DNA from: Terriglobia bacterium
GTDB lineage: Bacteria > Acidobacteriota > Terriglobia > UBA7540
Direction of reading: 5' to 3'
NCBI GenBank assembly: GCA_030040515.1
Contig: JASHTO010000348.1
Span: 1-49,823, forward strand
Length of the DNA: 49,823 nucleotides
Numbering within the stretch: the stretch's first letter is position 1; every line of letters starts with the position of its first letter. Position numbers and translations under genes: made by a program. Shown one piece after another: positions 2,573 through 17,200 of this stretch. The notes under the pieces are model-generated. The model made no database searches. It was given only the letters and a program-made list of their open reading frames with translations, and was not told the DNA's origin.

Positions 2573-3829
2573 TTAATAGCGCTTGAAGCGCATTTGCACT
2601 TCCACGGGCTTGCCGGTGAGTTCGATGGGTTTACGAATGATGAGGGAATTGTCACGGCCGTCGCGCGCGAGCCACAGGCCTTTGGGATTGTCGGGCGCAA
2701 GACCTTTGGGCGCGTGGACGTAAATGCCGCCCTCGTGCCCGGCGGGCCGCTGGGCGCGGATGGTGAGCGTCATGGCGTCCTGGTCCCAATTGCAATCGAG
2801 AATCTCCGCCTGGCCCTGCCGCACGTGCATATCCGTCGAAATCAGCCAGGGATGATCGCGATACGGCGCGATGCGCAGCAGCTTGACGCTGTCGGGCGGG
2901 ACTTCGACGGAAATCGAGCCGCTGGTTTCAACGCCCTGATAGCGCAGGTTCCAGAAATCGAAGACGGAGTACTGGCCCTTGGGGTCGAGCTTCAGGCGTT
3001 CGAGCGGAAACGTGCGGGCCATGGTGTGGTCGCTCAGGTTGAAGACGGCAAGCAAGTCCCGGTATTCCCACTCGCGCTCGACTTTCATGTGAAAGACCTG
3101 GGGGTAATCGAGCTCGGCGTAATCGAACAGGTCGAGCGGGCGCGCGCACTCGGGCAGGCGCGGGAAGATCATGCGGACCATCAACATGCGGTCTTCATCC
3201 ATGCGGTCAACGTCGTCGCCGAGCATCACGGGCCCGCCGTTGATGCCGAAGATGGTCACGCTGATCTGCGCGTCGCCGAGGGGAATGGGCTTGTCGATGG
3301 TCATCACGCTGCCGCTGTCGGCCAGATAGAGCTTGCGGTGGGCAAAGTAATAAATCAGCGAGCAGAGTCCGGTGCGGTGTGAGGTCCAGTAATCGGGCTT
3401 GTTGATGACGAACGTGCCGGGATAGAAGCCCTTGTTGGGTCCGTAGCGCGCGCGACCCTCGCCCAGCTTGAGCGGCTGATGGCCGCGATTCTCAATCCTG
3501 GAGCTGACGATCAGTGCCTGGCCGTCGGATTCCCAACTGAATTGAACTTGCCACTCGATTGCGGGTGATTGAAACGTGAATTTGGCTTCGCCGGTTTCTT
3601 CGCCGCTCCACTCCGCGTGAGAGGCATCATCCGCCCAGTGGGTGATGCCATCAATTTCAATTCCCATGCGAACGTTTTTGAGCCCGATATCTCCGGGAAT
3701 CGAGTATCGCCGGGTTTTCAGACCGAATAGAAATCGGCCTATAGCCGCTGCGGGCGTTTTGCCGGTAGCCAACTTCGCACCCGCCACGGCCGCGAAATAG
3801 GCCGTGGGGAAGAAATCTCCGCGGTTCAT
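2573..3829 (-). CDS. Hypothetical protein, glycoside-hydrolase-like (GH27/GH36 alpha-galactosidase-like C-terminal region); possibly truncated
   Basis: 418-aa ORF, the longest frame here (the antisense 2486-3382 ORF is judged a GC shadow). 'GGPVMLGDDVDRMDEDRMLMVRMIFPRLP' and the downstream beta-sandwich-like tail resemble melibiase-type enzymes. No clear full TIM-barrel length and a weak RBS. Confidence 0.4.
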   Translation of the reverse strand: MNRGDFFPTAYFAAVAGAKLATGKTPAAAIGRFLFGLKTRRYSIPGDIGLKNVRMGIEIDGITHWADDASHAEWSGEETGEAKFTFQSPAIEWQVQFSWESDGQALIVSSRIENRGHQPLKLGEGRARYGPNKGFYPGTFVINKPDYWTSHRTGLCSLIYYFAHRKLYLADSGSVMTIDKPIPLGDAQISVTIFGINGGPVMLGDDVDRMDEDRMLMVRMIFPRLPECARPLDLFDYAELDYPQVFHMKVEREWEYRDLLAVFNLSDHTMARTFPLERLKLDPKGQYSVFDFWNLRYQGVETSGSISVEVPPDSVKLLRIAPYRDHPWLISTDMHVRQGQAEILDCNWDQDAMTLTIRAQRPAGHEGGIYVHAPKGLAPDNPKGLWLARDGRDNSLIIRKPIELTGKPVEVQMRFKRY

Positions 3830-4277
3830 CTTTATGCGGAATTGCTCTCCTCAAGTTCTTGGGGGAAGAGGGCGCTTCGAGTGGCCCTGGAGCGCAAGCG
3901 AAGCGCTTGTCCAGCGCGCCGCACACCAGCCATTGAAAAGTGGCACTCCCGCCGCCGAGGAGGTATGGAGGTACGTCTCCACGGCCTCATAGCCGAAGAA
4001 AAATGGTCGATGTATCATTCGGCGGGATTGCGAAAACTTCCTTACCAAGGGTTCTGAAAAATGGTCTACTGTGGTTATGCTATTCCTCTTGGGTGGTCTT
4101 GCCAAGGTAACATCGTCCTTCCAGTACTGGGAAAGCACCTAAAAAATTCATATGGCCTTTGATTGGTCTAATGTGGACCAAAATTGGGGCAGAGGATTGG
4201 CGCCCGTTGCGGTCCAATGATGTGCCCCTCGGAGGCGCGAATGTTCAAATGGCCACTAGCTGCAAGGGCCTTCCGGC

Positions 4278-5390
4278 CTACCTTAACGGCGTTCTGGGGT
4301 ATTCAGGACTTCGGTTGGGGGCATTTCTTTCCGCATAGGCGGGCAGAGGCGGCGCCGCGTGGGCGCCTTCCTGGTACCAGAATGCCACGCTGGTGTAATC
4401 GTCATGGCTGGGCACTTGTTTGCCGTCTTCATTGCGCTGATTCTGGATTTCAACTTTGAGGGATTTCTGAAAGCGCACGGGATTGGCGAGATACCATCGG
4501 TACATGCGGTTCTGCCCTTCATCCATTTGAATATATCCGCTGTAGATGTACGAGTAGGTATGCTCAAAACCCCAGCAGGACCCGTATTCGTCCTCCGTCC
4601 CCGGAGTGTGGGTGACGGAATTCCCATCAACGTGGAAGATGGTATCGCCTTCGCCCCACCAACCTTGATACCGGGTGTCCACTTGAAGGAAATTGCCGAT
4701 GTACTGGCCGGTGCCTTTGATTTCCAGCAAATTGTGCATGCCGTCCGTGGGATTCGAGCGGTTCCAGGCGGCGTGCAGACGGCTTTTTTCGTCGGCGAAG
4801 GCGGGGTCAGACTCATAATCGATGCCATACGCCACGGAGCGAATGTATTCTTCGTCGCCGTCATTCGCTAGCACCCAGCGCGCCCGGCGCGAAAAGGGCA
4901 TGGGAAGATAACACATGAAATTGTAGTGATTGATCTGCATGGGCAGCGACTGATATTCGATGGCTTTGTGGTTGAAGACTCCGAAGAAAGCCCAAAGCGG
5001 GACGCGAATGCTGGGCTCGGGGGCGTCATCCCAATACACTTTCAGCACCAGCCCCGCGTACATCGCACCCGAGCCATCTGTTCCGTGCTTGTAGCTGCTA
5101 TCGGTGAAATAGAAGTAGGTGATTTTGCCGGGCCCCGCAATGTCCGCCAGCACGTACTCTTTCCCGGGTGGCAAGTCGATTTGGTGATACTCCACATGGC
5201 TGGCGAATGAGCCGTGGGTGATGCGAAAGATGTCATTCACCTGGGCCCATGTGCGTGAGCCGGAAATCATCGTGAACGCCCAGGTCAACATCAGGAGTTT
5301 GGCAAACGTCGGCCACGAGTTATGCCTCAGATCCGGGTCAGACGGCGCTATCCTCTGGCAATGTTCCGCATACTTGAGACAATTCAACAT
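4278..5390 (-). CDS. DUF2961 / GH172-family protein
   Basis: 370-aa ORF. 'QGWWGEGDTIFHVDG...TPGTEDEYGSCWGF' matches the GEGD...DG...GTEDY signature remembered for DUF2961. Start is uncertain; an in-frame Met at 5291 would give a signal-like N-terminus. Confidence 0.65.
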   Translation of the reverse strand: MLNCLKYAEHCQRIAPSDPDLRHNSWPTFAKLLMLTWAFTMISGSRTWAQVNDIFRITHGSFASHVEYHQIDLPPGKEYVLADIAGPGKITYFYFTDSSYKHGTDGSGAMYAGLVLKVYWDDAPEPSIRVPLWAFFGVFNHKAIEYQSLPMQINHYNFMCYLPMPFSRRARWVLANDGDEEYIRSVAYGIDYESDPAFADEKSRLHAAWNRSNPTDGMHNLLEIKGTGQYIGNFLQVDTRYQGWWGEGDTIFHVDGNSVTHTPGTEDEYGSCWGFEHTYSYIYSGYIQMDEGQNRMYRWYLANPVRFQKSLKVEIQNQRNEDGKQVPSHDDYTSVAFWYQEGAHAAPPLPAYAERNAPNRSPEYPRTPLR

Positions 5391-5929
5391 GTGGGTTCTC
5401 CCTCAGGGCGGGATGAATATCAGATTCCCACACTTCATTGCAACACAGTAATAACGAGATTCAATTTGGCGGAACTCAGTGATGGCCGAGCACAAGGCAT
5501 CGAGCGCGGCTACGACTCCGAATTGCGCCACAGCCAGCGCGCCTGTGGGAACGGCATCGGTGCAGGGCGATAGGTTCTGTAATCCCTTTTTGCGGGAGCA
5601 AGAGGCTCGTGCTACGGACTAATAGGTTTTAGAGAAGGTAAACCTGGGGTGCCAGTGCCATTATCTAAAGATAGTCCACCGATACCTTGTCAAGATTCTC
5701 CGAGCATTGGGAAGTCCATTGTTCAGCCACAGGGTGCCATGGATCGCGGGGAGGGTGCTATATCTCGATAGTGATAAAAATAAATATTTTCCTTGAAGAC
5801 CTGCGGGGTTTAGGTTAATCTTTAGTTGTTCCTGAAGTTTGAATGTGATAAAGCAGCGAGGAGGGTCAACCCTACCCCCCTCGATTTGCCATTTCCAAGC
5901 ACGTTTCCCCGCCCACGCCAAGGGAGATA

Positions 5930-7840
5930 GTGCTATTCGTATGTCACCCCAACGGACACGGCGAGTGGTGCTGCATGAGCATGCGCGGTATGTTGCTCGA
6001 AGACAGGGGAATGGGGATGAAGCGAGGATCCCGTGATCAGGACTATTTGCTTGCGCATGCCTGCTTAGTAATTGCCTTTGCCTGCCTCCTTACCAGCTAC
6101 CTTTATCCTGCCGTTCTGGGTAAGCATGCAACTTCTTGCCGGGTTTTGATTTTCATTTATTTCGCTTACGCCATTTTGAACTTGGGCGTTGTTCTGCTCA
6201 GGAGGCCGATCAGCCTGGTGTGGCGCTTGAGCTTGCACGCAGCCGACATCGTCGTCGCATCGTCAATTATTTTACTGACCGGGGGAGCCCACAGCCCCTT
6301 TCTGCCGCTTTACTTTTTCGTGCTCCTCGCCGCGGCAAGCCGGTGGGGAGTTGCCGGGGCTTTCCCGACGCTCTGCGCCTGCATCATGGTCTTACTTTTG
6401 GAGTCTGCCGCGCCCTTTCCCTGGTCTGCGGGAATGCTGCACTGGACGGGGGGAAGCGGGTATTTGAACGCCATCATCGCCCTTCTGGTGCTTTCGGCTT
6501 ATCTATTCGGATTGCTTTTGATGGACCGGGAGAAGAAGCTGCATGCGGAAGCTGGCATCGTCACCCGGCTGGTGCGGCAGGCGCTCCACGAGCCGAGTTT
6601 GCGCGTCAATATCGGCAACATCCTGATTTCCGTGCGGGAGTATTTTGATGCGGATCAAGTGGGGCTGGTAACTCAGGAAATCAAAGCCGAGCAGGCCTTC
6701 TTATGGGAAGCGAGCCGGCCAAGTCCTGACCAGACCAACAATGAAGTCAAATCCTGGACGCTGACCGGGCTTAAGCGCGAGGCGTATTTCACCATGTTGC
6801 CGGAGGGGATGTGGCGGATGCTCGGGCTGCGGCGCATCGGGGGGGACCCGAAGCTTCGGGCGGAGGCCGCCGCGAGACGTGAAATTGAATTGCAGAGTCC
6901 GCTCCGCGCGGCGCTGGCCGGGTTCCTTGCTCCGGAGCAGGATTACGACGAACTCTACGACATGCGCATTGTCAGCGAACAGCACACGCCCTTCGGGGGG
7001 TTCGGTTCACTGCTGGCCACTTCGTTTTCGCTGGAGAAAAAGTGGTTTGGGCGCCTGACGGTCTACAACCCCGGGAAAAGCAGCGAGGCGAAGGGCAATT
7101 CCCGATTCCTTGCCTCCTTGATCCGCGAGGTTGGACCCGTTATTTACAACAAATTTCTGGTGAGTCGTCTGCGCTCAAGGGCGCAGGCACGGGAGCGGCT
7201 GCGCTTGGCGCAGGAATTGCACGACGGGGTCATACAATCGCTGATCGGGGTGGAAATGCAAATCGACCTCCTGCGGCGGGCTCAGGAAAGGTCGGCGAGC
7301 CCGGCTTTTTCGAACGGCGATTTGAAGCGCTTGCAAGAGGTTATTCACAACGAAATCGTGGATTTTCGGGAGCAGATGCAGCGCGTTAAACCGCTGGAGG
7401 TGGATCCCACGCACCTGTTGGACTGCATTGCCGGAACGGTTGAGAGGTTTCGGCGCGACCTGGGAATTTCAGCCAGTTTTGTCTCCGAAGCTGAGGAAGT
7501 TTCCCTTCCGCCCCGAGTATGTTCGGAGTTGGTGCGAATCGTGCAAGAGGCCCTGGCCAATATCCGCAAGCACAGCGGAGCACACAAGGTTCAAGTCGTT
7601 TTTGTGCGGGGGAATGAACACTGGAAACTCCGCGTGGAGGATGACGGCCGCGGTTTTGGTTTTGCCGGCCGCCTTACGTTGGCCGAGCTGGAACATGTTC
7701 CCGAGTGTCCAATTGTCATTAAGGAGAGGGTTCGGTCGATCGGAGGGGAACTGATGATTGAGTCCATCCCCGGTTCCGGCGCCAAATTGGAAGTATTGCT
7801 ACCCTTGGCCACAAATGGAAGATCAACTTACCCAAATTGA
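5930..7840 (+). CDS. Membrane sensor histidine kinase, NarL-partner (HisKA_3) type
   Basis: About 5-6 hydrophobic helices at the N-terminus and a GAF-like middle region. H-box 'AQELHDGVIQSL'. HATPase motifs 'QEALANIRKH', 'EDDGRGF', 'GGELMIESIPGSGAKL'. Start is uncertain (GTG 5930; in-frame ATGs at 5975 and 6017). Confidence 0.85.
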   Translation: MLFVCHPNGHGEWCCMSMRGMLLEDRGMGMKRGSRDQDYLLAHACLVIAFACLLTSYLYPAVLGKHATSCRVLIFIYFAYAILNLGVVLLRRPISLVWRLSLHAADIVVASSIILLTGGAHSPFLPLYFFVLLAAASRWGVAGAFPTLCACIMVLLLESAAPFPWSAGMLHWTGGSGYLNAIIALLVLSAYLFGLLLMDREKKLHAEAGIVTRLVRQALHEPSLRVNIGNILISVREYFDADQVGLVTQEIKAEQAFLWEASRPSPDQTNNEVKSWTLTGLKREAYFTMLPEGMWRMLGLRRIGGDPKLRAEAAARREIELQSPLRAALAGFLAPEQDYDELYDMRIVSEQHTPFGGFGSLLATSFSLEKKWFGRLTVYNPGKSSEAKGNSRFLASLIREVGPVIYNKFLVSRLRSRAQARERLRLAQELHDGVIQSLIGVEMQIDLLRRAQERSASPAFSNGDLKRLQEVIHNEIVDFREQMQRVKPLEVDPTHLLDCIAGTVERFRRDLGISASFVSEAEEVSLPPRVCSELVRIVQEALANIRKHSGAHKVQVVFVRGNEHWKLRVEDDGRGFGFAGRLTLAELEHVPECPIVIKERVRSIGGELMIESIPGSGAKLEVLLPLATNGRSTYPN

Positions 7841-8489
7841 AATCGTAATTTCGGATGACCACCCGGTTTTCCGTGACGGCTTGCGGAGATTGCTTGAGTC
7901 CGAGGAAGGGATCCGTGTTGTGGCGGAAGCCTGCGACGGCGAAGAAACCATCCGGTTGGTCCGTCAATACAAGCCCCGGATCCTGCTCCTGGACCTCGCC
8001 ATGCCGAAGGGCACCGGGCTTGAAACCCTTCGCGTCTTAAGCCAATCGGGGATTTCTACTCGAACCATCCTGCTTACCGCCTCGATAGAAAAGGAGCAAG
8101 TGCTTGAGGCGCTGCAATTGGGGGCGCGCGGAATAGTTCTGAAGGATTCCACGATACAGGTTATTTTGAAAAGCATCCGTTGTGTGAACGAAGAGCAATT
8201 TTGGGTGGGCCAGGAGAGCGTCTCAGACCTGATTCAAGCCCTGAGACGGTTGATGCCGCAGCACCGCGCCTCAGAGGCCAAGAAGAATTTTGGGCTTACC
8301 TCACGCGAATTACAGGTTATTGCCCTGATCGTCGCCGGCTACACCAATAAAGATCTCGCCACAAAGCTGGGCATTAGCGAACATACTGCCAAACACCACC
8401 TTACCAACATTTTTGACAAGCTGGGGGTTTCCAACCGCTTGGAATTGGTGCTATTTGCCATCAACCAACAGCTCATCAAAGAGGAATAG
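7815..8489 (+). CDS. Response regulator, NarL/LuxR family (REC + HTH)
   Basis: In-frame ATG at 7815 gives 'MEDQLTQIEIVISDDHPVFRDGL...LLLDLAMP' (REC domain). C-terminal 'LTSRELQVIALIVAGYTNKDLATKLGISEHTAKHHLTNIFDKLGVSNRLEL' (LuxR HTH). Overlaps the kinase stop by 26 nt. Confidence 0.9.
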   Translation: MEDQLTQIEIVISDDHPVFRDGLRRLLESEEGIRVVAEACDGEETIRLVRQYKPRILLLDLAMPKGTGLETLRVLSQSGISTRTILLTASIEKEQVLEALQLGARGIVLKDSTIQVILKSIRCVNEEQFWVGQESVSDLIQALRRLMPQHRASEAKKNFGLTSRELQVIALIVAGYTNKDLATKLGISEHTAKHHLTNIFDKLGVSNRLELVLFAINQQLIKEE

Positions 8490-9337: not shown

Positions 9338-9383
9338 AGAACGAAGGGGCAAGAGTTTGAATGGCAGTCCCAAGGAGAAACTA

Positions 9384-10007
9384 ATGCCGATCGAAGAAAC
9401 GGGGGCGGAAGGAACCTCCAGCGTGGTGAAAGTGAGCTGGCATGCCCTTTACACCCGCCACCAGCATGAAAGGCTGGTAGCCCATGCTTTGACCGGCAAA
9501 GGCTTTGATATATTCTTGCCGCAGTATCGCACGGTTCATCGTTGGAAGGACCGTTGGAAGGAACTCGAATTGCCCCTTTTCCCCAATTACGTTTTTGTCC
9601 TGGGCGGACTGGATCGTATGTTAAACATTCTGACGACGCCGGGCGTCCACTCCATGGTGTCCTGGGGAGGGCGACCGGCCGACATCCCGCAGCATGAAAT
9701 TGAGGCGGTACGCAGGCTGATTGAAAGCCCATTACGAGTTCAGAAGCACCCTTTTATCAAGTGCGGCGACAGGGTTCGGATAAAGTCGGGTCCCCTGGAA
9801 GGAATTGAAGGCATCCTGGTGCGCAGCAAAAGTGCCTACCGGCTGGTCCTTTCGGTCGAAATGCTGGCGCGGTCTGCAGCCGTCGAGGTAGATGTTAACA
9901 TGGTCGAGCGGGTGGGCGGGGCCGAAGCGTTTCGAAAGGATAGGTTGAAGGCAGACACGGCAAGTCAGAGCTCGCAGCCAATTCGCATACCTGAATTTCA
10001 GCCTTAA
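9384..10007 (+). CDS. NusG-paralog transcription antiterminator (UpxY/RfaH-like, NGN + KOW)
   Basis: ATG 9384 lies 5 nt after AAGGAG (the track ORF begins at TTG 9357). 'WHALYTRHQHERLVAHALTGKGFDIFLPQY...LFPNYVFV' (NGN domain). 'GDRVRIKSGPLEGIEGILV' (KOW domain). Sits at the head of a polysaccharide operon. Confidence 0.8.
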   Translation: MPIEETGAEGTSSVVKVSWHALYTRHQHERLVAHALTGKGFDIFLPQYRTVHRWKDRWKELELPLFPNYVFVLGGLDRMLNILTTPGVHSMVSWGGRPADIPQHEIEAVRRLIESPLRVQKHPFIKCGDRVRIKSGPLEGIEGILVRSKSAYRLVLSVEMLARSAAVEVDVNMVERVGGAEAFRKDRLKADTASQSSQPIRIPEFQP

Positions 10008-10077: not shown

Positions 10078-10797
10078 ATGAAATTCGATCACATGGATCT
10101 ACGAAAAAGTATCCTGCGGGACGCGGGAGCCAGCCATCGCCTGATCCGAGCCAGATTCTGGGCGGGGCTGACGGTCGCAATGATCTTGATTCTGGGACTG
10201 CGATCCGGAAAGGCAAGGGAATTGCCTCGCATCCAAGGTGTGCCTAAAGTTGCGGCAACAGGGCAGAACGCGCCGGCGGATGCCGGCGTGCCACAGTCCA
10301 AGTCGAAGGAGGCGGCCTACCTTATCGGACCGTCCGATGTCCTGGCGATCAGCGTGTGGAAGGATAATGAGCTCACTCGAACGATTCCAGTGCGCCCGGA
10401 TGGAAAGATCACTCTGCCCTTGATTGGGGATCTAGCCGTGAGCGGATTGACGGCAGAGGCTGCACAGCAGCTCATTGCACAAAAATTGAAGGAGTTTATT
10501 TCCGATCCGCAAGTTACCGTGATCGTGCAGGAAGTCAAAAGCAGAACTTACAGCATTTTGGGCAAAGTCGCCAAGCCCGGGGCCTACCCCTTGGGGAAAC
10601 CCACGACAATTATTGAAGCCATAGCAATTGCCGGCGGCTTCCAGGATTTCGCCCGGGAGAATAAGATTTACATCTTGCGACCCAAGAGTGACGGTTCGGA
10701 TCAGACGGTTCCGTTCGATTACAAGAAGGCCATCCGGCGGCACAATCCCGAAGAGAATATCGAGCTCCAGAGCGGCGATACAGTCATCGTTCCTTAA
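10078..10797 (+). CDS. Polysaccharide export protein, Wza/Poly_export + SLBB type
   Basis: 239 aa. 'IGPSDVLAISVWKDNELTRTIPVRPDGKITLPLIGDLAVSGLTAEAAQQLIAQKL' is the classic Poly_export motif. The SLBB-like C-terminus ends 'LQSGDTVIVP'. Confidence 0.85.
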   Translation: MKFDHMDLRKSILRDAGASHRLIRARFWAGLTVAMILILGLRSGKARELPRIQGVPKVAATGQNAPADAGVPQSKSKEAAYLIGPSDVLAISVWKDNELTRTIPVRPDGKITLPLIGDLAVSGLTAEAAQQLIAQKLKEFISDPQVTVIVQEVKSRTYSILGKVAKPGAYPLGKPTTIIEAIAIAGGFQDFARENKIYILRPKSDGSDQTVPFDYKKAIRRHNPEENIELQSGDTVIVP

Positions 10798-10821: not shown

Positions 10822-12432
10822 GTGGTGGAACAAGAAGAAAACCTTGATGAAATGATCAGTAAGGGGCTGCGCGCCGCGGCGAAACACCGCTGGTGTCTGT
10901 TGTTGCCTACGATTCTGGGAGGGCTCGTGGCATGCGGGGTTTCGCGAGTGCTTCCCAATCGTTACGAGTCCGAGGCCACGATTCTTGTGGAGCACCAACA
11001 GGTGCCCGAACGATATGTAACACCCAACACCACCGCGGATATGCGCGAGACCGTGCTGATCACCACCGACGCCATCCTTTCACGCACCCAGTTGCTGAAA
11101 ATCATTGATGAATATAATCTTTATCCAAATGAGCGGAAGCGGCTCTCTCCCGAGGAATTGGGCTCTCTCATGCGCGGTAAGATCGCCATAAAACCCTTGG
11201 ATGAGTTAGGGGGCACCAAGTCGCTCGAGGAATTCAAGATTTCCTATATGGGCACCAGTCCTCTCATGGCTCAGGAGGTCACTCGCAAACTTACAACACT
11301 TTTCATTCAAGAGAACGACCGGTGGCAGGGAGACCAGGATCGGGTCACAACGCAGTTCCTGGAACAGCAGGTTGAAGCCGCTGCCGCTGAGTTGAAGAAA
11401 ATGGAAGACCAGGTTCGGGAATTCAAGATGAATAATCTTGGCGCCTTGCCTGAGCAACAGCAGGGAAACCTGGGCATTCTTACCGGATACCAGATGCAGC
11501 TTCAAAATACCCAAGCGGCGCTTGGCCGGGCAAAGGAGCAGCAGGTTTATATCGAATCTCTGCTGGCGCAATACCAGCAATTGGGCGCCGAGGAGGTTCC
11601 CGCGCCGGGTGCGGGGGGTACAGTTACGGCGGATCCTGTCCAGACGATCAAAGCGAAGTTGGCCGACCTGAGGAGCCAAAGGGCCACCTTGCTGGCGGAC
11701 CACACGGAAAAATATCCTGACGTCGTCAGGATTGAAGAAGAGATCAAGGAATCAGAGGCCTTGTTGGCGGCCGCCCTAAAGAAAACTCCCGGGCCTTCCA
11801 CGGATGGCGCCGGCAAGGAATCCGCTGAGACGGCAGATTCCTCCGCGAACAATGCTGCCATGGCCCAATTGAAGAGCCAACTCCAGGCAAACCAACTCGA
11901 AATCCAAAACAATGAGACGCTGGAAAAACAACTACAAGGACAAATTGCCGAGTATCGGAATCGCCTCAACCTGACTCCGGTTCGCGAGCAGCAACTCGCC
12001 GAGTTAAATCGGAATTATGAACTGACCAAGAAAAACTACGATGATCTGCTGACCAGAAAGCAGGCGTCGGAATTGGCCACGGACCTTGACCAGCGGCAGC
12101 AGGGCCAGCGATTCCGCACCATCGACCAGCCCAGTCTGCCCATGAAACCCGCCTGGCCGAACCATATGGCCATCGCCTTGGGCGGTTTGGGGGCGGGCCT
12201 GGCCTTGGGCATCGCATTGGTTTTCATTCTATACTTCCAGGATCACTCCGTGATGAATGAGAAGGAGTTGGGTCGCTTCTTTTCTTTTCCTTTATTGATA
12301 GGCGTTCCGTCTCTTCCTACAAGGGCCGACGTCCGAAGGCGTTCTCGGATGCATGTGGTAGAGTGGGTGCTAGGTTTCGCCTTGTTTGTGGTCGTCTGCG
12401 CATCCGAGTACTTTGTATATCGTCGGGGCTAG
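10822..12432 (+). CDS. Polysaccharide chain-length determinant (Wzz/GumC-type, kinase-less half of a split Wzc)
   Basis: 536 aa. AGGAGG lies 8 nt upstream of GTG 10822. N-terminal TM helix plus 'NRYESEATILVE'. Long coiled-coil middle region and a C-terminal TM helix (AIALGGLGAGLALGIALVFILYF). Confidence 0.8.
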   Translation: MVEQEENLDEMISKGLRAAAKHRWCLLLPTILGGLVACGVSRVLPNRYESEATILVEHQQVPERYVTPNTTADMRETVLITTDAILSRTQLLKIIDEYNLYPNERKRLSPEELGSLMRGKIAIKPLDELGGTKSLEEFKISYMGTSPLMAQEVTRKLTTLFIQENDRWQGDQDRVTTQFLEQQVEAAAAELKKMEDQVREFKMNNLGALPEQQQGNLGILTGYQMQLQNTQAALGRAKEQQVYIESLLAQYQQLGAEEVPAPGAGGTVTADPVQTIKAKLADLRSQRATLLADHTEKYPDVVRIEEEIKESEALLAAALKKTPGPSTDGAGKESAETADSSANNAAMAQLKSQLQANQLEIQNNETLEKQLQGQIAEYRNRLNLTPVREQQLAELNRNYELTKKNYDDLLTRKQASELATDLDQRQQGQRFRTIDQPSLPMKPAWPNHMAIALGGLGAGLALGIALVFILYFQDHSVMNEKELGRFFSFPLLIGVPSLPTRADVRRRSRMHVVEWVLGFALFVVVCASEYFVYRRG

Positions 12433-12492: not shown

Positions 12493-13326
12493 GTGCATAA
12501 TCGCACTCTCAAAGCCGAATCAGAAAAGGACGAAATCCTTGAGACAACTTCGGATGAGTTTTTGAAGGGATTGGAAAGAGCAGACAGTGATTTGCCTTTC
12601 CCAGTGGAAACCATTTCTGTCCCTGAAGAAAGCCGCTTGGTTATCCAAACCGAACCCCGAAGCGCGGGTGCGGATCGATTCAGATTGGTGCAGATGCGCC
12701 TTCGCCATCTGCAAGCTTCCAAAAAGCTGAGAACCCTCCTGATTACAAGTCCTCTGCCTGGCGATGGCAAGAGCACCGTGTCTTTGAATCTGGCTGCTGC
12801 CTTGGCCGAAAAGGGGAAAAGGCCCGTCCTCTTGCTGGAAGCCGATGTCTACCGGCCTTCATTGTTGAAGAAACTGGGTCTTAGCCCCTGGGCAGGTTTG
12901 ACCGAATGTCTGGATAACAAAAGCGACCCCATGCTGGCTATTCGGCGGGTAGATCCCATGGGGTTTTACATTTTGCCCGCCGGGAGCCCGACGCTGGGGG
13001 GTAACTTCCTCCAATCTACCCTCACCCCCCAATTTTTTGAGGGTTTGGCAACGACTTTTAAGTGGATTATCGTCGATTCTCCCCCCACCACCCCCATGGC
13101 TGAAATCCTGGCGCTGAAAGTCCTGACCGATGCCACGTTGCTGGTGGTTCGGGCCGGCGGTACCCCTCGTGAGGCGATCGAGACGGCGACTCAGACCCTG
13201 GGTCGGGAACACATTATTGGGATCGTACTCAACGACGTCGAAGGGCTCGAGAAAGTCTATTCGAAATACTATGGGTACACGCAACCTGCCCACGGCCCCA
13301 AAGGTGCAAAGTCTATTCGAAAGTAG
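12493..13326 (+). CDS. BY-kinase-type tyrosine autokinase / P-loop ATPase (CpsD/CapB-like)
   Basis: Walker A 'PLPGDGKST', A' 'VLLLEADVYRP', Walker B 'WIIVDSPP'. Tyr-rich tail 'KVYSKYYGYTQ'. Confidence 0.85.
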   Translation: MHNRTLKAESEKDEILETTSDEFLKGLERADSDLPFPVETISVPEESRLVIQTEPRSAGADRFRLVQMRLRHLQASKKLRTLLITSPLPGDGKSTVSLNLAAALAEKGKRPVLLLEADVYRPSLLKKLGLSPWAGLTECLDNKSDPMLAIRRVDPMGFYILPAGSPTLGGNFLQSTLTPQFFEGLATTFKWIIVDSPPTTPMAEILALKVLTDATLLVVRAGGTPREAIETATQTLGREHIIGIVLNDVEGLEKVYSKYYGYTQPAHGPKGAKSIRK

Positions 13327-14108: not shown

Positions 14109-14462
14109 ATGACTGATCCCCGCCCCAACGTAGTCATGAAAGGAACTCCCAGAGCTGAGCGCTTTCCGATCAGCATTCCGGTACGCTATCGCGAACCGAA
14201 CCGCTCCGAGTGGCTCCAGGGTAAGACCGAGAACATTAGTCGGTCGGGAGTTTTATTGCTCACGGAAGCCTCATTAGAGCCAAAGATTGCAATCGAATTG
14301 AGGTTTGAACTTCCTATTTCTGTCCTCGGAGAGGGGCGCGGGCAGATTGTTTGCAAGGGAACGGTGGTCCGTGCGGAGGAGAATCCCCTCTTGGACCCAC
14401 CGACTACCCTGGCGATTGCAATTCGCAGTTATCGTATGACGCGCGGAGGGCAGGTTCATTAG
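14109..14462 (+). CDS. Small PilZ-domain-like protein (paralog 2)
   Basis: 117 aa. 'PRAERFPISIPVRY...GKTENISRSGVLL...IVCKGTVVRAEE...YRMTRGG' parallels paralog 1 block for block. Confidence 0.6.
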   Translation: MTDPRPNVVMKGTPRAERFPISIPVRYREPNRSEWLQGKTENISRSGVLLLTEASLEPKIAIELRFELPISVLGEGRGQIVCKGTVVRAEENPLLDPPTTLAIAIRSYRMTRGGQVH

Positions 14463-14486: not shown

Positions 14487-15875
14487 ATGCAGCAAAGTGG
14501 GAAACAAGAGGGTGGGCGGAATGCGGTTTCGTGGAGAGGCCAGTTGAACAAGCTCATTCCGCTTGCCATTTTCATCACCTTGACACCTTTGACCATTCAC
14601 GCCCAAGTTTCTTCTTCCGGACTGTCGGCCTTGGCGTCTCCTGTGGCCATCGGCAATGGGTTGCAGGCTCCGTTGCGATTTTCGAATGAGGCTGTCCCAA
14701 CCAACCAGGTCTCGGTGAGCATGGGCGCCTCAATGATCTACAACGATAACGTCTTCGATGAAAATTCGGATCGGGTTGCAGACGAGGCCGCTTCCATTAC
14801 TTCCCACTTTGCTTTCCTGCGGCAAACTCGGAACGTATCTTTCAATTTCAATTACTCGCCCAGCTTTTTTCTCTACAAGAACACGACCCAATATGACCGC
14901 CTCAATCATATGGGCAACCTGGACCTTGAGTACAGGTTCAGCCCCCGATGGGTACTCACCTTGGACGATGGGATCAGCTATCAAAATGGCATCTTCCAAT
15001 CCCTGGTGGGGCAGCAAATTTCCTCGGGGCTGGGATCCCCTACCGGCCTGAATCAGTCCGTCTTTCCGTATACGGACAGAACGCTTACGAATACGAGTGG
15101 GTTCGACCTGATCTTTGTGAAGAGCCATCGAACATCCATAGCACTGACGGGTGGGTACAATGTGCTCCAATTCGGAAGCAGCCAGATCGCGGGCGAGCCG
15201 TTGTATAACGGCCGCTCTGCAAGCGGCGGGATTCAATATCAATATCACATCACCGAGCACACGAGTTTCGGGATTTCCGTCCTTCATGAGGATTCTACGT
15301 ACAAAGGGGGTGACGCCATTGGCAGCCTCGAACGATATCAAACCGAAAGCGCTCTCATTGCCCTTCAGTCGCACTTTACCCCGAGCGTGACGGTGTCGTT
15401 TTTCGGCGGACCGCAATACATAACCACCTTTGGTGAGTCGGCGGGCGTAAGCGCAACGGAACACTTTCAAGGAGCAGGCGGGGGAAGCATCACCAAGGAA
15501 GTCAGAAAAACGGCTTTCGATATTACTTTAGAAAGAAGGGTCTCTGACAGCGGGGGCATCTACGGGCAAGTGGAATACACGTCGGCGACCTTAGGAGTCC
15601 GTCGACACCTCGTGGGGCATTGGGAAGCTGATTTCCGCAATGGCGCCACCCGGATCGACACGCTGTATTCGCAGTTGGGAACAGGGCGGACGGATGGTTT
15701 GCTGGGTAGTTTTGAACTCGTGCGCCCCTTCGCAAATGGTGCGACCTTCCGCGTTTCATACCAAAATGGCCATCAACTCAGTTCAGGAACATTGCCCATT
15801 GCGGAAAAATACGACTTGAATTTGGTGACGTTAGCAATTGACTTCCGGCTGAAGTCCATTCCGATTGGCCATTAG
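14487..15875 (+). CDS. Putative outer-membrane beta-barrel protein of the EPS export apparatus
   Basis: 462 aa with a signal peptide (LIPLAIFITLTPLTIHAQ). Alternating hydrophobic/polar beta-strand pattern throughout, rich in Y, G, S, T, N. No enzymatic motifs. Confidence 0.45.
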   Translation: MQQSGKQEGGRNAVSWRGQLNKLIPLAIFITLTPLTIHAQVSSSGLSALASPVAIGNGLQAPLRFSNEAVPTNQVSVSMGASMIYNDNVFDENSDRVADEAASITSHFAFLRQTRNVSFNFNYSPSFFLYKNTTQYDRLNHMGNLDLEYRFSPRWVLTLDDGISYQNGIFQSLVGQQISSGLGSPTGLNQSVFPYTDRTLTNTSGFDLIFVKSHRTSIALTGGYNVLQFGSSQIAGEPLYNGRSASGGIQYQYHITEHTSFGISVLHEDSTYKGGDAIGSLERYQTESALIALQSHFTPSVTVSFFGGPQYITTFGESAGVSATEHFQGAGGGSITKEVRKTAFDITLERRVSDSGGIYGQVEYTSATLGVRRHLVGHWEADFRNGATRIDTLYSQLGTGRTDGLLGSFELVRPFANGATFRVSYQNGHQLSSGTLPIAEKYDLNLVTLAIDFRLKSIPIGH

Positions 15876-16012: not shown

Positions 16013-17200
16013 ATGATTGCTGACATTTTTCAATCGAAGAAACCGTGGAAAAGAATCACGGGCAACGGGATGGCCTTTGGTCCCCAAGTCAGGGCAGAAT
16101 CCGACAGCGAGGATGCGGGATTTTCACTCGTGTCGGAGGATCTGTTCCGGAGAGTGCTCACCATTGAGCGCAAACGGAGTGAGCGGTCCCGGCAGAGGTT
16201 TGTGCTCATGCTGCTCCATGTGGGCAAGGTCATCGACACGGGGCGGGGGAGAGTGATCCTGGAAGGAATTACGGAGGCACTTTCCAACTCGGCGCGGGAG
16301 ACGGATTTGCATGGCTGGTATGAGGACGGATCCGTCATCGGAGTCATTTGCACGGAAATCGGCAGGGGCGATCTGGCTTCGATCCTGAGTGCCTTAAACT
16401 CCCGGATGAGGGCTGCCTTGCAGACCTGCTTGCAGCTTGAGCAGATTGAATCGATCCATATTACTTTCCACGTCTTTCCCGATGACATGGAAGTTGGCAA
16501 GGGTGGCCGTTCAACCGACATCAGCCTTTACCCTGACCTCCTGACCAAGGACCAGGCTTCCTCGACTTATCGCTTGATCAAGAGAGCCATCGATGTGGTC
16601 GGCAGCTTTCTTGCCCTGATTATCCTCTCTCCTCTTTTTGCGGTCATTGCCATTGCCATCCGGCTGACCTCAAAGGGGCCGATCTTGTTCAAACAGGACC
16701 GTGTCGGTCAGTACGGTGAACCCTTTTCCTTCCTCAAGTTCCGGTCGATGTATTTCCAGAACGACGCGAGGATTCATCGGGACTATGTTCGCCGCCTCAT
16801 TTCCGGGAAGGGAGTGACGAAAGGGGATGAAAAGAATGCACCGGTCTACAAGTTAAAGGATGATCCCCGGATCACACCGGTGGGAAGATTTCTGCGCAAG
16901 ACCAGTCTGGATGAACTGCCGCAATTCTTCAACGTCCTCAGAGGAGAGATGTCGCTGGTGGGGCCACGTCCCCCCATTCCTTATGAGGTCGAGGTCTACG
17001 AAATATGGCATCGGCGGCGCTTCCTCGAAGCGAAACCTGGAATTACCGGGTTGTGGCAGGTGGAGGGTCGCAGCAGGACCAAATTCGACGAGATGGTTCG
17101 TTTGGACCTGCGCTATGTCAAGACCTGGTCGCCGTGGTTGGACATCAAAATCCTCTTGCGAACCCCTGCCGCCGTGCTGAAGGGAAATGGAGCCTATTGA
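16013..17200 (+). CDS. Priming phosphoglycosyl transferase (Bac_transf/WbaP-PglC type) with an N-terminal degenerate GGDEF-like domain
   Basis: C-terminal '[18 protein letters not shown]...[25 protein letters not shown]...[37 protein letters not shown]'. The N-terminal ~190 aa is cytoplasmic and GGDEF-like (see findings). Alternative start at 16070. Confidence 0.85.

Follow-up and report, generated by a model that had tools for sequence, protein, structure and literature searches.

Positions 1 to 49,823 of the contig JASHTO010000348.1 (NCBI GenBank assembly GCA_030040515.1) of a Terriglobia bacterium (Acidobacteriota) were analysed, a stretch of 49,823 nucleotides (nt) referred to here as the window. 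The locus in the window is an exopolysaccharide (EPS) cluster of the Wzx/Wzy type, and one of its genes encodes a monotopic phosphoglycosyl transferase (PGT) that carries at its N-terminus a domain resembling the GGDEF domains of cyclases that produce cyclic diguanosine monophosphate (c-di-GMP). An earlier note, made by reading the DNA without database searches, had proposed that this domain has lost its catalytic site, has kept the inhibitory site (I-site) with its RxxD motif, and places a c-di-GMP receptor directly on the committed step of EPS assembly.

The fusion gene and its catalytic half

The features of the fusion gene, numbered by residue of its product where this is useful, are the following.

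16013..17200, + strand: GGDEF-like and monotopic PGT fusion gene, 395 amino acids (aa), from the list of open reading frames (ORFs), the sequence, Pfam and TIGR03025
16013..16123, + strand: N-terminal tail, residues 1-37, predicted to be disordered (predicted local distance difference test, pLDDT, 34-57), with variable or gapped alignment columns
16124..16546, + strand: degenerate GGDEF-like domain, residues ~38-178, with a core at 42-155 and the LYPD segment (AlphaFold2 (AF2), Foldseek, hhalign)
16166..16189, + strand: E52-R53-K54-R55-S56-E57-R58-S59, basic end of helix 1; R55 corresponds to PleD R313 of the secondary I-site (hhalign, and HMMER against SiaD)
16217..16225, + strand: H69-V70-G71, counterpart of the metal-binding DxD (DIDFFK); H69 corresponds to PleD D327, and a 6-residue deletion follows
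16295..16306, + strand: RETD (R95-D98), RxxD motif of the primary I-site, aligned to PleD R359-A-I-D362
16313..16321, + strand: G101-W102-Y103, family-specific triplet right after RxxD; PleD has C-R-Y here, and Y103 corresponds to PleD Y367, before GGEEF
16322..16336, + strand: EDGSV (residues 104-108), degenerate counterpart of GG(D/E)EF, aligned to PleD G368-G-E-E-F372
16403..16405, + strand: R131 in helix 3, where it is residue 11 of the modelled stretch 121-139; equivalent by hhalign to PleD R390, which is the third primary I-site residue
16574..16672, + strand: amphipathic or re-entrant PGT membrane helix, residues ~188-220, with the Ser-Pro break typical of monotopic PGTs
16580..17182, + strand: PGT catalytic domain (Bac_transf), in which the motifs FLKFR, SLDELPQ (Asp-Glu dyad), MSLVGPRPP and KPGITGxWQV are conserved

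A Shine-Dalgarno-like element, GGAGAG, lies 7 nt 5' of the ATG. The reading frame is present as first described, and so are the two short strings on which the original argument turned, RETD and EDGSV.

The Pfam model Bac_transf (PF02397) spans residues 190-390 and is matched over its whole length (233 bits, E 2.5e-69), and the NCBIfam model TIGR03025 (exopolysaccharide polyprenyl glycosylphosphotransferase) is passed with 311 bits against a cut-off of 295.55. The WbaP, WcaJ and EpsZ equivalog models of NCBIfam score far under their cut-offs. The sole hydrophobic segment is centred on residues 197-217 (Kyte-Doolittle value of at least 1.6). In residues 1-185 the same scan detected no such segment, so that this N-terminal part is expected to lie in the cytoplasm. 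At the re-entrant helix, K190, R191 and D194 are invariant in the homologues, and the full-length AF2 model draws this region as one long helix (174-219). By its motifs and profile matches the enzyme half is an intact monotopic PGT, and the gene product is the polyprenyl-phosphate sugar-1-phosphate transferase by which a Wzx/Wzy-dependent EPS cluster initiates (primes) synthesis. The N-terminus of the large monotopic PGTs, which consists of a four-helix transmembrane (TM) bundle and a CoA_binding_3-like domain, was not found by Pfam or hydropathy in residues 1-190, whose sole and weak Pfam match is GGDEF. The proposed order of parts, in which a soluble domain stands in place of the membrane or CoA-binding-like region and is followed by a single re-entrant helix and the catalytic domain, is thus borne out.

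Fold and homology of the N-terminal domain

The Pfam GGDEF model (PF00990) matches the fusion protein below threshold (12.9 bits, E 0.095, cut-off 23.8), and a NCBIfam scan of the N-terminal 190 aa gave no match. Two PDB sequence matches of the same 190 residues, to Cas5 and to an ABC-transporter binding protein, were at chance level and were dismissed as noise. A search with residues 1-190 returned 34 homologues. When these were aligned with the domain from the window, 11 of the 35 sequences showed sub-threshold PF00990 matches (best E 0.0032), and no rival family was seen. The only PDB sequence match of the family profile was the cyclase SiaD (7e6g, E 0.045), in which HMMER paired ReTDlhG of the family with REYDLCG.

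Profile comparison extended this relationship over nearly the whole GGDEF domain. A profile of 77 genomic homologues was aligned by hhalign with PleD, whose sequence and numbering were verified against PDB entries, together with two genuine GGDEF domains from the fetched loci; the alignment covered 136 columns with a probability of 94% and E 2e-8. A smaller profile of 22 sequences, compared with PleD alone, gave the same register over just 38 columns, with a probability of 1.9%. The conserved LYPD (residues 172-175) aligns with the ALYxAK helix that closes the GGDEF domain; the domain therefore reaches to about residue 178, where it abuts the first helix of the PGT.

Structure prediction led to the same fold. 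The domain core was modelled by AF2 with pLDDT values of 80-92 from 35 sequences and 91-97 from 67 sequences, and comprises helix 42-59, strand 63-69, helix 79-93, strands 99-103 and 108-113, helix 121-139 and strand 149-155. In a Foldseek comparison of the model with the PDB, the top 50 matches were all GGDEF domains (E 7e-6 to 1.8e-3, probability 1.00). The best was 5llw (E 7e-6); c-di-GMP-bound cyclases are among the 50, and the receptor PelD (4dn0) stands at rank 46 (E 1.4e-3). The N-terminal domain thus almost certainly adopts the GGDEF fold and shares its ancestry with GGDEF domains, as profile alignment and modelled structure agree. The GGDEF pattern that had been recognised by eye is upheld by three independent computations (HMMER, hhalign and Foldseek), and the register of the original hand alignment to PleD was reproduced by both HMMER against SiaD and hhalign against PleD.

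A decayed active site

In the place of GG(D/E)EF the domain carries EDGSV, and the metal-binding DxD is represented by H69-V70-G71. The deletion that follows takes out the FKxxND segment for GTP binding, including the equivalents of PleD K332 and N335. The counterpart of PleD D344 is R80. Among the 77 homologues, position 69 is variable (H in 23, D in 21, E in 13, S in 11 and N in 7), and positions 80 and 104-108 are mixed across the family. Overall, neither the GG(D/E)EF motif nor the equivalents of PleD D327, K332, N335 and D344 were found in the PGT-fusion domain by hhalign and inspection of the family columns. The domain is accordingly classified as a degenerate GGDEF domain: its GGDEF motif, the aspartates that bind metal and the segment that binds guanine have been lost or deleted, and c-di-GMP synthesis is predicted to be no longer possible. 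The active site had been called degenerate from the start, with 'DIDHFK' replaced by 'LHVGKV'. The loss of metal and GTP residues stands; the pairing does not, as the profiles put H69-V70-G71 on DxD and open the 6-residue gap behind it.

The state of this site also bears on the nature of the ligand. The transferase could be controlled by another signal; candidates are GTP bound in what is left of the active site, a cyclic dinucleotide other than c-di-GMP, (p)ppGpp or the UDP-sugar that serves as substrate. GTP sensing by degenerate GGDEF domains is known, e.g., from the phosphodiesterase PdeA/CC3396, and the invariant Trp of the family together with its extra arginines could form a modified pocket. 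The nucleotide-binding accessory domain of large PGTs offers a precedent for nucleotide sensing at this position of the protein (PMC11626204). Such a ligand is nevertheless improbable: it is disfavoured because the GTP site is deleted, with FKxxND absent and the equivalents of D327, D344 and GGEEF variable. In every characterised case, moreover, the site that is conserved here binds c-di-GMP.

Conservation of the inhibitory site

In the hhalign alignment, the RxxD stretch of the fusion protein is matched with RAIDLPCRYGGEEF of PleD, and it lies five residues ahead of the GGDEF-equivalent motif, which is exactly the spacing that had been reported. A lone RxxD in one sequence is weak evidence by itself. 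Conservation was assessed in 77 full-length homologues, in which the pairwise identity of the domain ranges from 22 to 100% (median 39%). R95 is present in 76 of the 77 and D98 in all of them; R55 is likewise found in 77/77, and at position 131 there are 50 homologues with R and 26 with K. Of the 123 columns of the domain, 14 are at least 95% identical, and R55, R95 and D98 are among those 14. For three pre-specified positions, such an overlap would arise by chance with a probability of approximately 0.001 (14x13x12 / 123x122x121). The conservation of RETD in orthologues, which the earlier note had named as a check, was thereby observed.

The conserved columns include residues outside the canonical I-site. 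In the basic end of helix 1, E52, R53, R55 and R58 occur in 77/77 homologues and K54 in 76/77. Behind RxxD, G101 and W102 are present in all 77, and position 103 is always Y, F or H.

Judged from these alignments, the domain has retained a complete allosteric inhibitory site, made up of R95, D98, R131 and R55. An allosteric site that is frozen beside a catalytic site that has decayed is the pattern expected of a GGDEF domain kept as a c-di-GMP receptor.

Distribution and variants of the family

A scan of one genome per GTDB species yielded 101 relatives, and 80 loci were examined. The relatives belong mostly to Terriglobia and other Acidobacteriota; further ones were found in Syntrophobacteraceae and Desulfarculales (Desulfobacterota), Nitrospirae/Thermodesulfovibrionales, Fibrobacterota, Spirochaetia and Candidatus Raymondbacteria. 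The domain and a full Bac_transf share a single ORF (~350-410 aa) in 76 of the 80 loci, which represent at least six phylum-level lineages, and the remaining four look truncated or frameshifted.

An exhaustive HMMER search over 1.84 billion cluster representatives (clusters at 50% identity) gave 2,234 matches at E<=1e-3, 1,328 at E<=1e-10 and 112 at E<=1e-30. Among the matches listed, 143 metagenome representatives were analysed. Fifty of them run at least 60 aa past the domain, and Bac_transf was found in 37 of these 50; among the 13 others, many start into the KRxIDxxGS helix before they diverge, and so look frameshifted. The motif RxxDxxGW[YFH] is present in 140 of the 146 domain instances of the metagenome representatives. 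Many matches are 180-270 aa long and were considered as stand-alone domain proteins; they were rejected as contig-end truncations and as frameshifts in which the KRxIDxxGS helix is begun and the sequence then diverges. Fragments and frameshifted gene calls of this kind make up a large share of the metagenome-derived homologues. One representative, P0123 (905 aa), joins an aspartate kinase, ACT, the domain and the PGT, and is probably a read-through or a mis-called gene.

Three variants, P0035 (628 aa), P0036 (558 aa) and P0038 (505 aa), contain two GGDEF-like copies in tandem before the transferase, and each copy keeps both ERKR..RS and RxxDxxGWY. These variants hint that the domain functions in pairs. 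In public records, members of the family are named just 'sugar transferase' or 'lipopolysaccharide/colanic/teichoic acid biosynthesis glycosyltransferase'. The PGT-fusion family is large, crosses phyla and is unannotated. The survey of such fusions that had been advised therefore shows them to be widespread.

Gene neighbourhood

The genes of the EPS cluster around the fusion gene are the following.

5930-7840, + strand: HisKA_3 histidine kinase, head of the cluster
7758-8489, + strand: NarL/LuxR-type response regulator, head of the cluster
9357-10007, + strand: NusG-like protein, head of the cluster, after the kinase and regulator pair
10078-10797, + strand: Wza, export
10822-12432, + strand: Wzc-like co-polymerase, chain length; best NCBIfam matches XrtA-associated and sub-cut-off
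12493-13326, + strand: BY-kinase; best NCBIfam matches XrtA-associated and sub-cut-off
14109-14462, + strand: stand-alone PilZ-domain protein, 117 aa (PF07238, E 4.4e-9), two genes 5' of the PGT
14487-15875, + strand: 462-aa ORF without Pfam or NCBIfam match, between the PilZ gene and the PGT
17245-18246, + strand: GFO/IDH/MocA oxidoreductase; best NCBIfam match UDP-GlcNAc 3-dehydrogenase, subthreshold
18243-18740, + strand: hexapeptide acetyltransferase, downstream sugar module
18749-19999, + strand: DegT aminotransferase, downstream sugar module
22886-24832, + strand: AsnB-like amidotransferase, among the assembly genes of the cluster
27273 and 36788: Wzy and Wzx, respectively, assembly genes, with glycosyltransferases and methyltransferases in the same cluster

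The histidine kinase, response regulator and NusG-like genes at the head of the cluster suggest that transcriptional and anti-termination control is layered over the proposed post-translational switch. Wza, Wzc and the kinase lie upstream of the fusion gene in 44-52 of the 80 loci. The 462-aa ORF is kept upstream of the PGT in the cluster in 36/80 loci and adjoins the PGT in the closest relatives; its product may belong to the export apparatus as an outer-membrane part.

Downstream of the fusion gene, and across phyla, the oxidoreductase is found in 68 of the 80 loci, the acetyltransferase in 72 and the aminotransferase in 66. Because this module is conserved beside the PGT, it suggests that the sugar donor would be a UDP-2,3-diacetamido-2,3-dideoxy sugar or a close relative.

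Membership of the XrtA/PEP-CTERM group was considered and, on NCBIfam scores, not assigned, since TIGR03013 reaches 170 bits against a cut-off of 393 and the XrtA-model matches of Wzc and the kinase are also below their cut-offs. TIGR03007, TIGR03018 and TIGR03108 are the best, sub-cut-off XrtA/PEP-CTERM models for the chain-length determinant, the tyrosine kinase and the AsnB-like amidotransferase.

The PilZ protein has a motif of the NxSxxG type (NISRSG); its N-terminal RAER, read by eye as RxxR, differs from the canonical RxxxR. Two loci of other phyla carry GGDEF genes near the fusion gene. In the Fibrobacterota locus L062, an active-looking GGEEF cyclase with an RDSD I-site (4749-5684, - strand) is divergent from the fusion gene at a distance of 254 nt, and in the Raymondbacteria locus L069 a REC-GGDEF protein with a degenerate NGGML motif (3542-4531, + strand) lies 1.3 kb upstream of it. 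The PilZ gene and these two GGDEF neighbours are anecdotal links to c-di-GMP.

At its left end, the window contains glycoside-hydrolase-type genes, namely a GH20 hexosaminidase (92-2146), a Melibiase_C protein (2573-3829, - strand) and a DUF2961 protein (4278-5390, - strand). Their guanine plus cytosine content is ~0.60-0.62, compared with ~0.52-0.58 in the EPS cluster.

Proposed function and mechanism

The I-sites of degenerate GGDEF domains serve as c-di-GMP receptors for polysaccharide machines, as in PelD. In PleD and WspR, two GGDEF domains are linked by an intercalated c-di-GMP dimer, which spans from the primary site of the first to the arginine of the secondary site in the second. The conserved residues described above suggest that the GGDEF-like domain of the PGT fusion probably binds c-di-GMP, which would most likely be held in the form of an intercalated dimer, like that of PleD, WspR and PelD. 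The domain would pass its occupancy on to the transferase, and the initiation of polysaccharide synthesis, together with the consumption of undecaprenyl phosphate (Und-P), would track cellular c-di-GMP. The most likely route would be a ligand-bridged pairing of two GGDEF-like domains, in which the primary site of one domain would share c-di-GMP with the secondary site (R55) of the other. This pairing is the most economical proposal because both I-sites are conserved here and tandem-domain variants exist. It would dimerise or re-orient the transferase and, with the sign and stoichiometry presumed here, switch it on when c-di-GMP is high, which is what one expects by default of EPS systems such as PelD. 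The full regulatory model, in which c-di-GMP controls the fused PGT, is slightly favoured over its negation.

The opposite sign deserves consideration. The same cross-link between primary and secondary sites inhibits the cyclases PleD and WspR, and the equivalents of both sites are conserved in the fusion protein. Cross-linked GGDEF-like domains might accordingly lock the transferase in an inactive state, so that c-di-GMP would inhibit or sequester it and limit Und-P consumption. Sequence alone does not decide the sign of regulation, but high c-di-GMP raises EPS output in almost all known systems, including PelD and the synthase pathways (PMC12802240), and inhibition is thus a poor candidate.

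Several observations weigh against a c-di-GMP receptor. The homologues counted are related, which makes the above chance estimate for the conserved columns approximate. The equivalences of R55 with R313 and of R131 with R390 rest on sequence-profile alignment and helix position, not on superposed structures. In the full-length AF2 model (predicted template modelling score 0.48) the catalytic half is poorly modelled because the alignment is shallow there. The genomic context of c-di-GMP is limited, as the PilZ neighbour occurs in just 12 of the 80 loci, all of them close Terriglobia relatives, and a cyclase in 1-2 of the 80. Retention of RxxD does not ensure c-di-GMP binding in every degenerate GGDEF domain. 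Finally, the strongest family-specific conservation, that of G101-W102 and of R53, K54 and R58, is without counterpart in known I-sites and could reflect another or an additional function, e.g., a protein or membrane interface.

This last point leads to the possibility of a structural module without ligand, which would act as a constitutive dimerisation or scaffold domain or as a docking site for the Wzc/BY-kinase or other cluster proteins. RxxD, the GW pair and the residues of the basic helix would then form a protein-protein or protein-membrane interface. G101-W102 and E52-R53-K54-R55..R58 are the best conserved of the family-specific features and lie outside the canonical definition of the I-site, the tandem variants indicate that domain-domain pairing is important, and small PGTs normally do without an extra domain. 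The basic helix, near the re-entrant helix, could also touch anionic lipids. A ligand-free module is unlikely, however, as all four residues that bind c-di-GMP in PleD are conserved columns, while the other surface and the active site drift, and this is hard to explain without a nucleotide ligand. In addition, the known degenerate GGDEF domains that keep RxxD beside polysaccharide machinery are c-di-GMP receptors, as in PelD.

Taken together, the earlier interpretation of the domain as a c-di-GMP receptor on the priming transferase is supported by sequence and model. Evidence beyond that reading supports it in the same direction, namely the counterparts of R390 and R313, the wide distribution of the family, the tandem variants and the PilZ gene two genes upstream. 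We place at about 0.5 the probability that a widespread family of priming PGTs senses c-di-GMP directly through a fused GGDEF domain reduced to its I-site and so gates the Und-P-consuming step of the Wzx/Wzy pathway.

Comparison with known systems

PGTs have been divided into small enzymes with the catalytic domain only, large enzymes with a four-TM bundle together with a domain that binds nucleotides, and bifunctional enzymes with a fused enzyme domain (PMC11626204). The PGT fusion shares the re-entrant helix with Ser-Pro, the DE dyad and the PRP motif with PglC-type small and WbaP/WcaJ/EpsZ large PGTs. It fits none of the described classes, as its accessory domain is of a soluble, signalling type and not an enzyme (PMC11626204). 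According to a 2025 mBio paper (PMC12802240), regulatory domains, receiver domains for example, have already been catalogued as fusion partners of PGTs. The earlier note could not recall a description of the present architecture. Full-text literature searches brought up no publication in which a PGT fusion is connected with GGDEF or c-di-GMP; the O'Toole 2021 survey of PGT fusions (PNAS) lay outside their coverage, and a prior listing is possible there. Such a fusion is not mentioned in PMC11626204 and PMC12802240.

Post-translational regulation of Wzx/Wzy pathways is incompletely understood, and direct control by c-di-GMP has been characterised for synthase-dependent systems (PMC12802240). 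In Myxococcus xanthus, the single-domain response regulator EpsW~P activates the large PGT EpsZ post-translationally, and this was proposed to occur via an active dimer (PMC12802240). This is a precedent for control of a PGT through an active dimer. Regulation acts there on the initiating PGT of a Wzx/Wzy pathway, and would do so here. EpsW~P is a phosphorylated receiver acting in trans, whereas the GGDEF-like domain is present in cis and its predicted signal is a second messenger.

If the proposal is true, it would represent the first cis-acting c-di-GMP switch on a PGT and would extend direct c-di-GMP control from synthase-dependent to Wzx/Wzy pathways. A receptor domain on the priming transferase would put the signal at the step that commits scarce Und-P, which gives a simple and testable model of control. 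The family is abundant in Acidobacteria of soil and peat, anaerobic Desulfobacterota and Nitrospirota, groups with little genetics and ecologically important EPS. The repertoire of c-di-GMP effectors in these phyla may be under-counted, because records say 'sugar transferase' and Pfam misses the domain. The family also offers an example of a GGDEF domain stripped to its allosteric site, and its signature, ERKRxxRS ... RxxDxxGW[YFH], could be the starting point for a new profile.

In structure the domain is closest to active cyclases that bear an I-site, and its nearest functional analogue is PelD. With PleD, WspR, SiaD and DgcB the domain shares the fold, the RxxD five residues before the GGDEF position and the counterparts of R390 and R313. 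It differs from active cyclases in lacking GG(D/E)EF, the metal-binding Asp pair, FKxxND and the strand after the last helix, and its output would be the fused transferase instead of feedback on cyclase activity. PelD, from the Pel system of Pseudomonas aeruginosa, is similarly a dead GGDEF domain that keeps RxxD and a downstream arginine inside an EPS machine. Its I-site residues are R367, D370 and R402, of which R402 is the counterpart of PleD R390. PelD is a separate, unfused TM-GAF-GGDEF protein of the inner membrane in a synthase-dependent pathway, whereas the domain described here is joined in cis to a Wzx/Wzy pathway's Und-P priming transferase. No sequence similarity to PelD was detectable beyond the fold, and the PGT-fusion family has a GW motif and a basic ERKR helix of its own. 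The PelD-like theme is thus already known, and the comparison suggests that the new element would be a GGDEF receptor that is reduced to its I-site and sits in cis on the transferase that primes Wzx/Wzy pathways.

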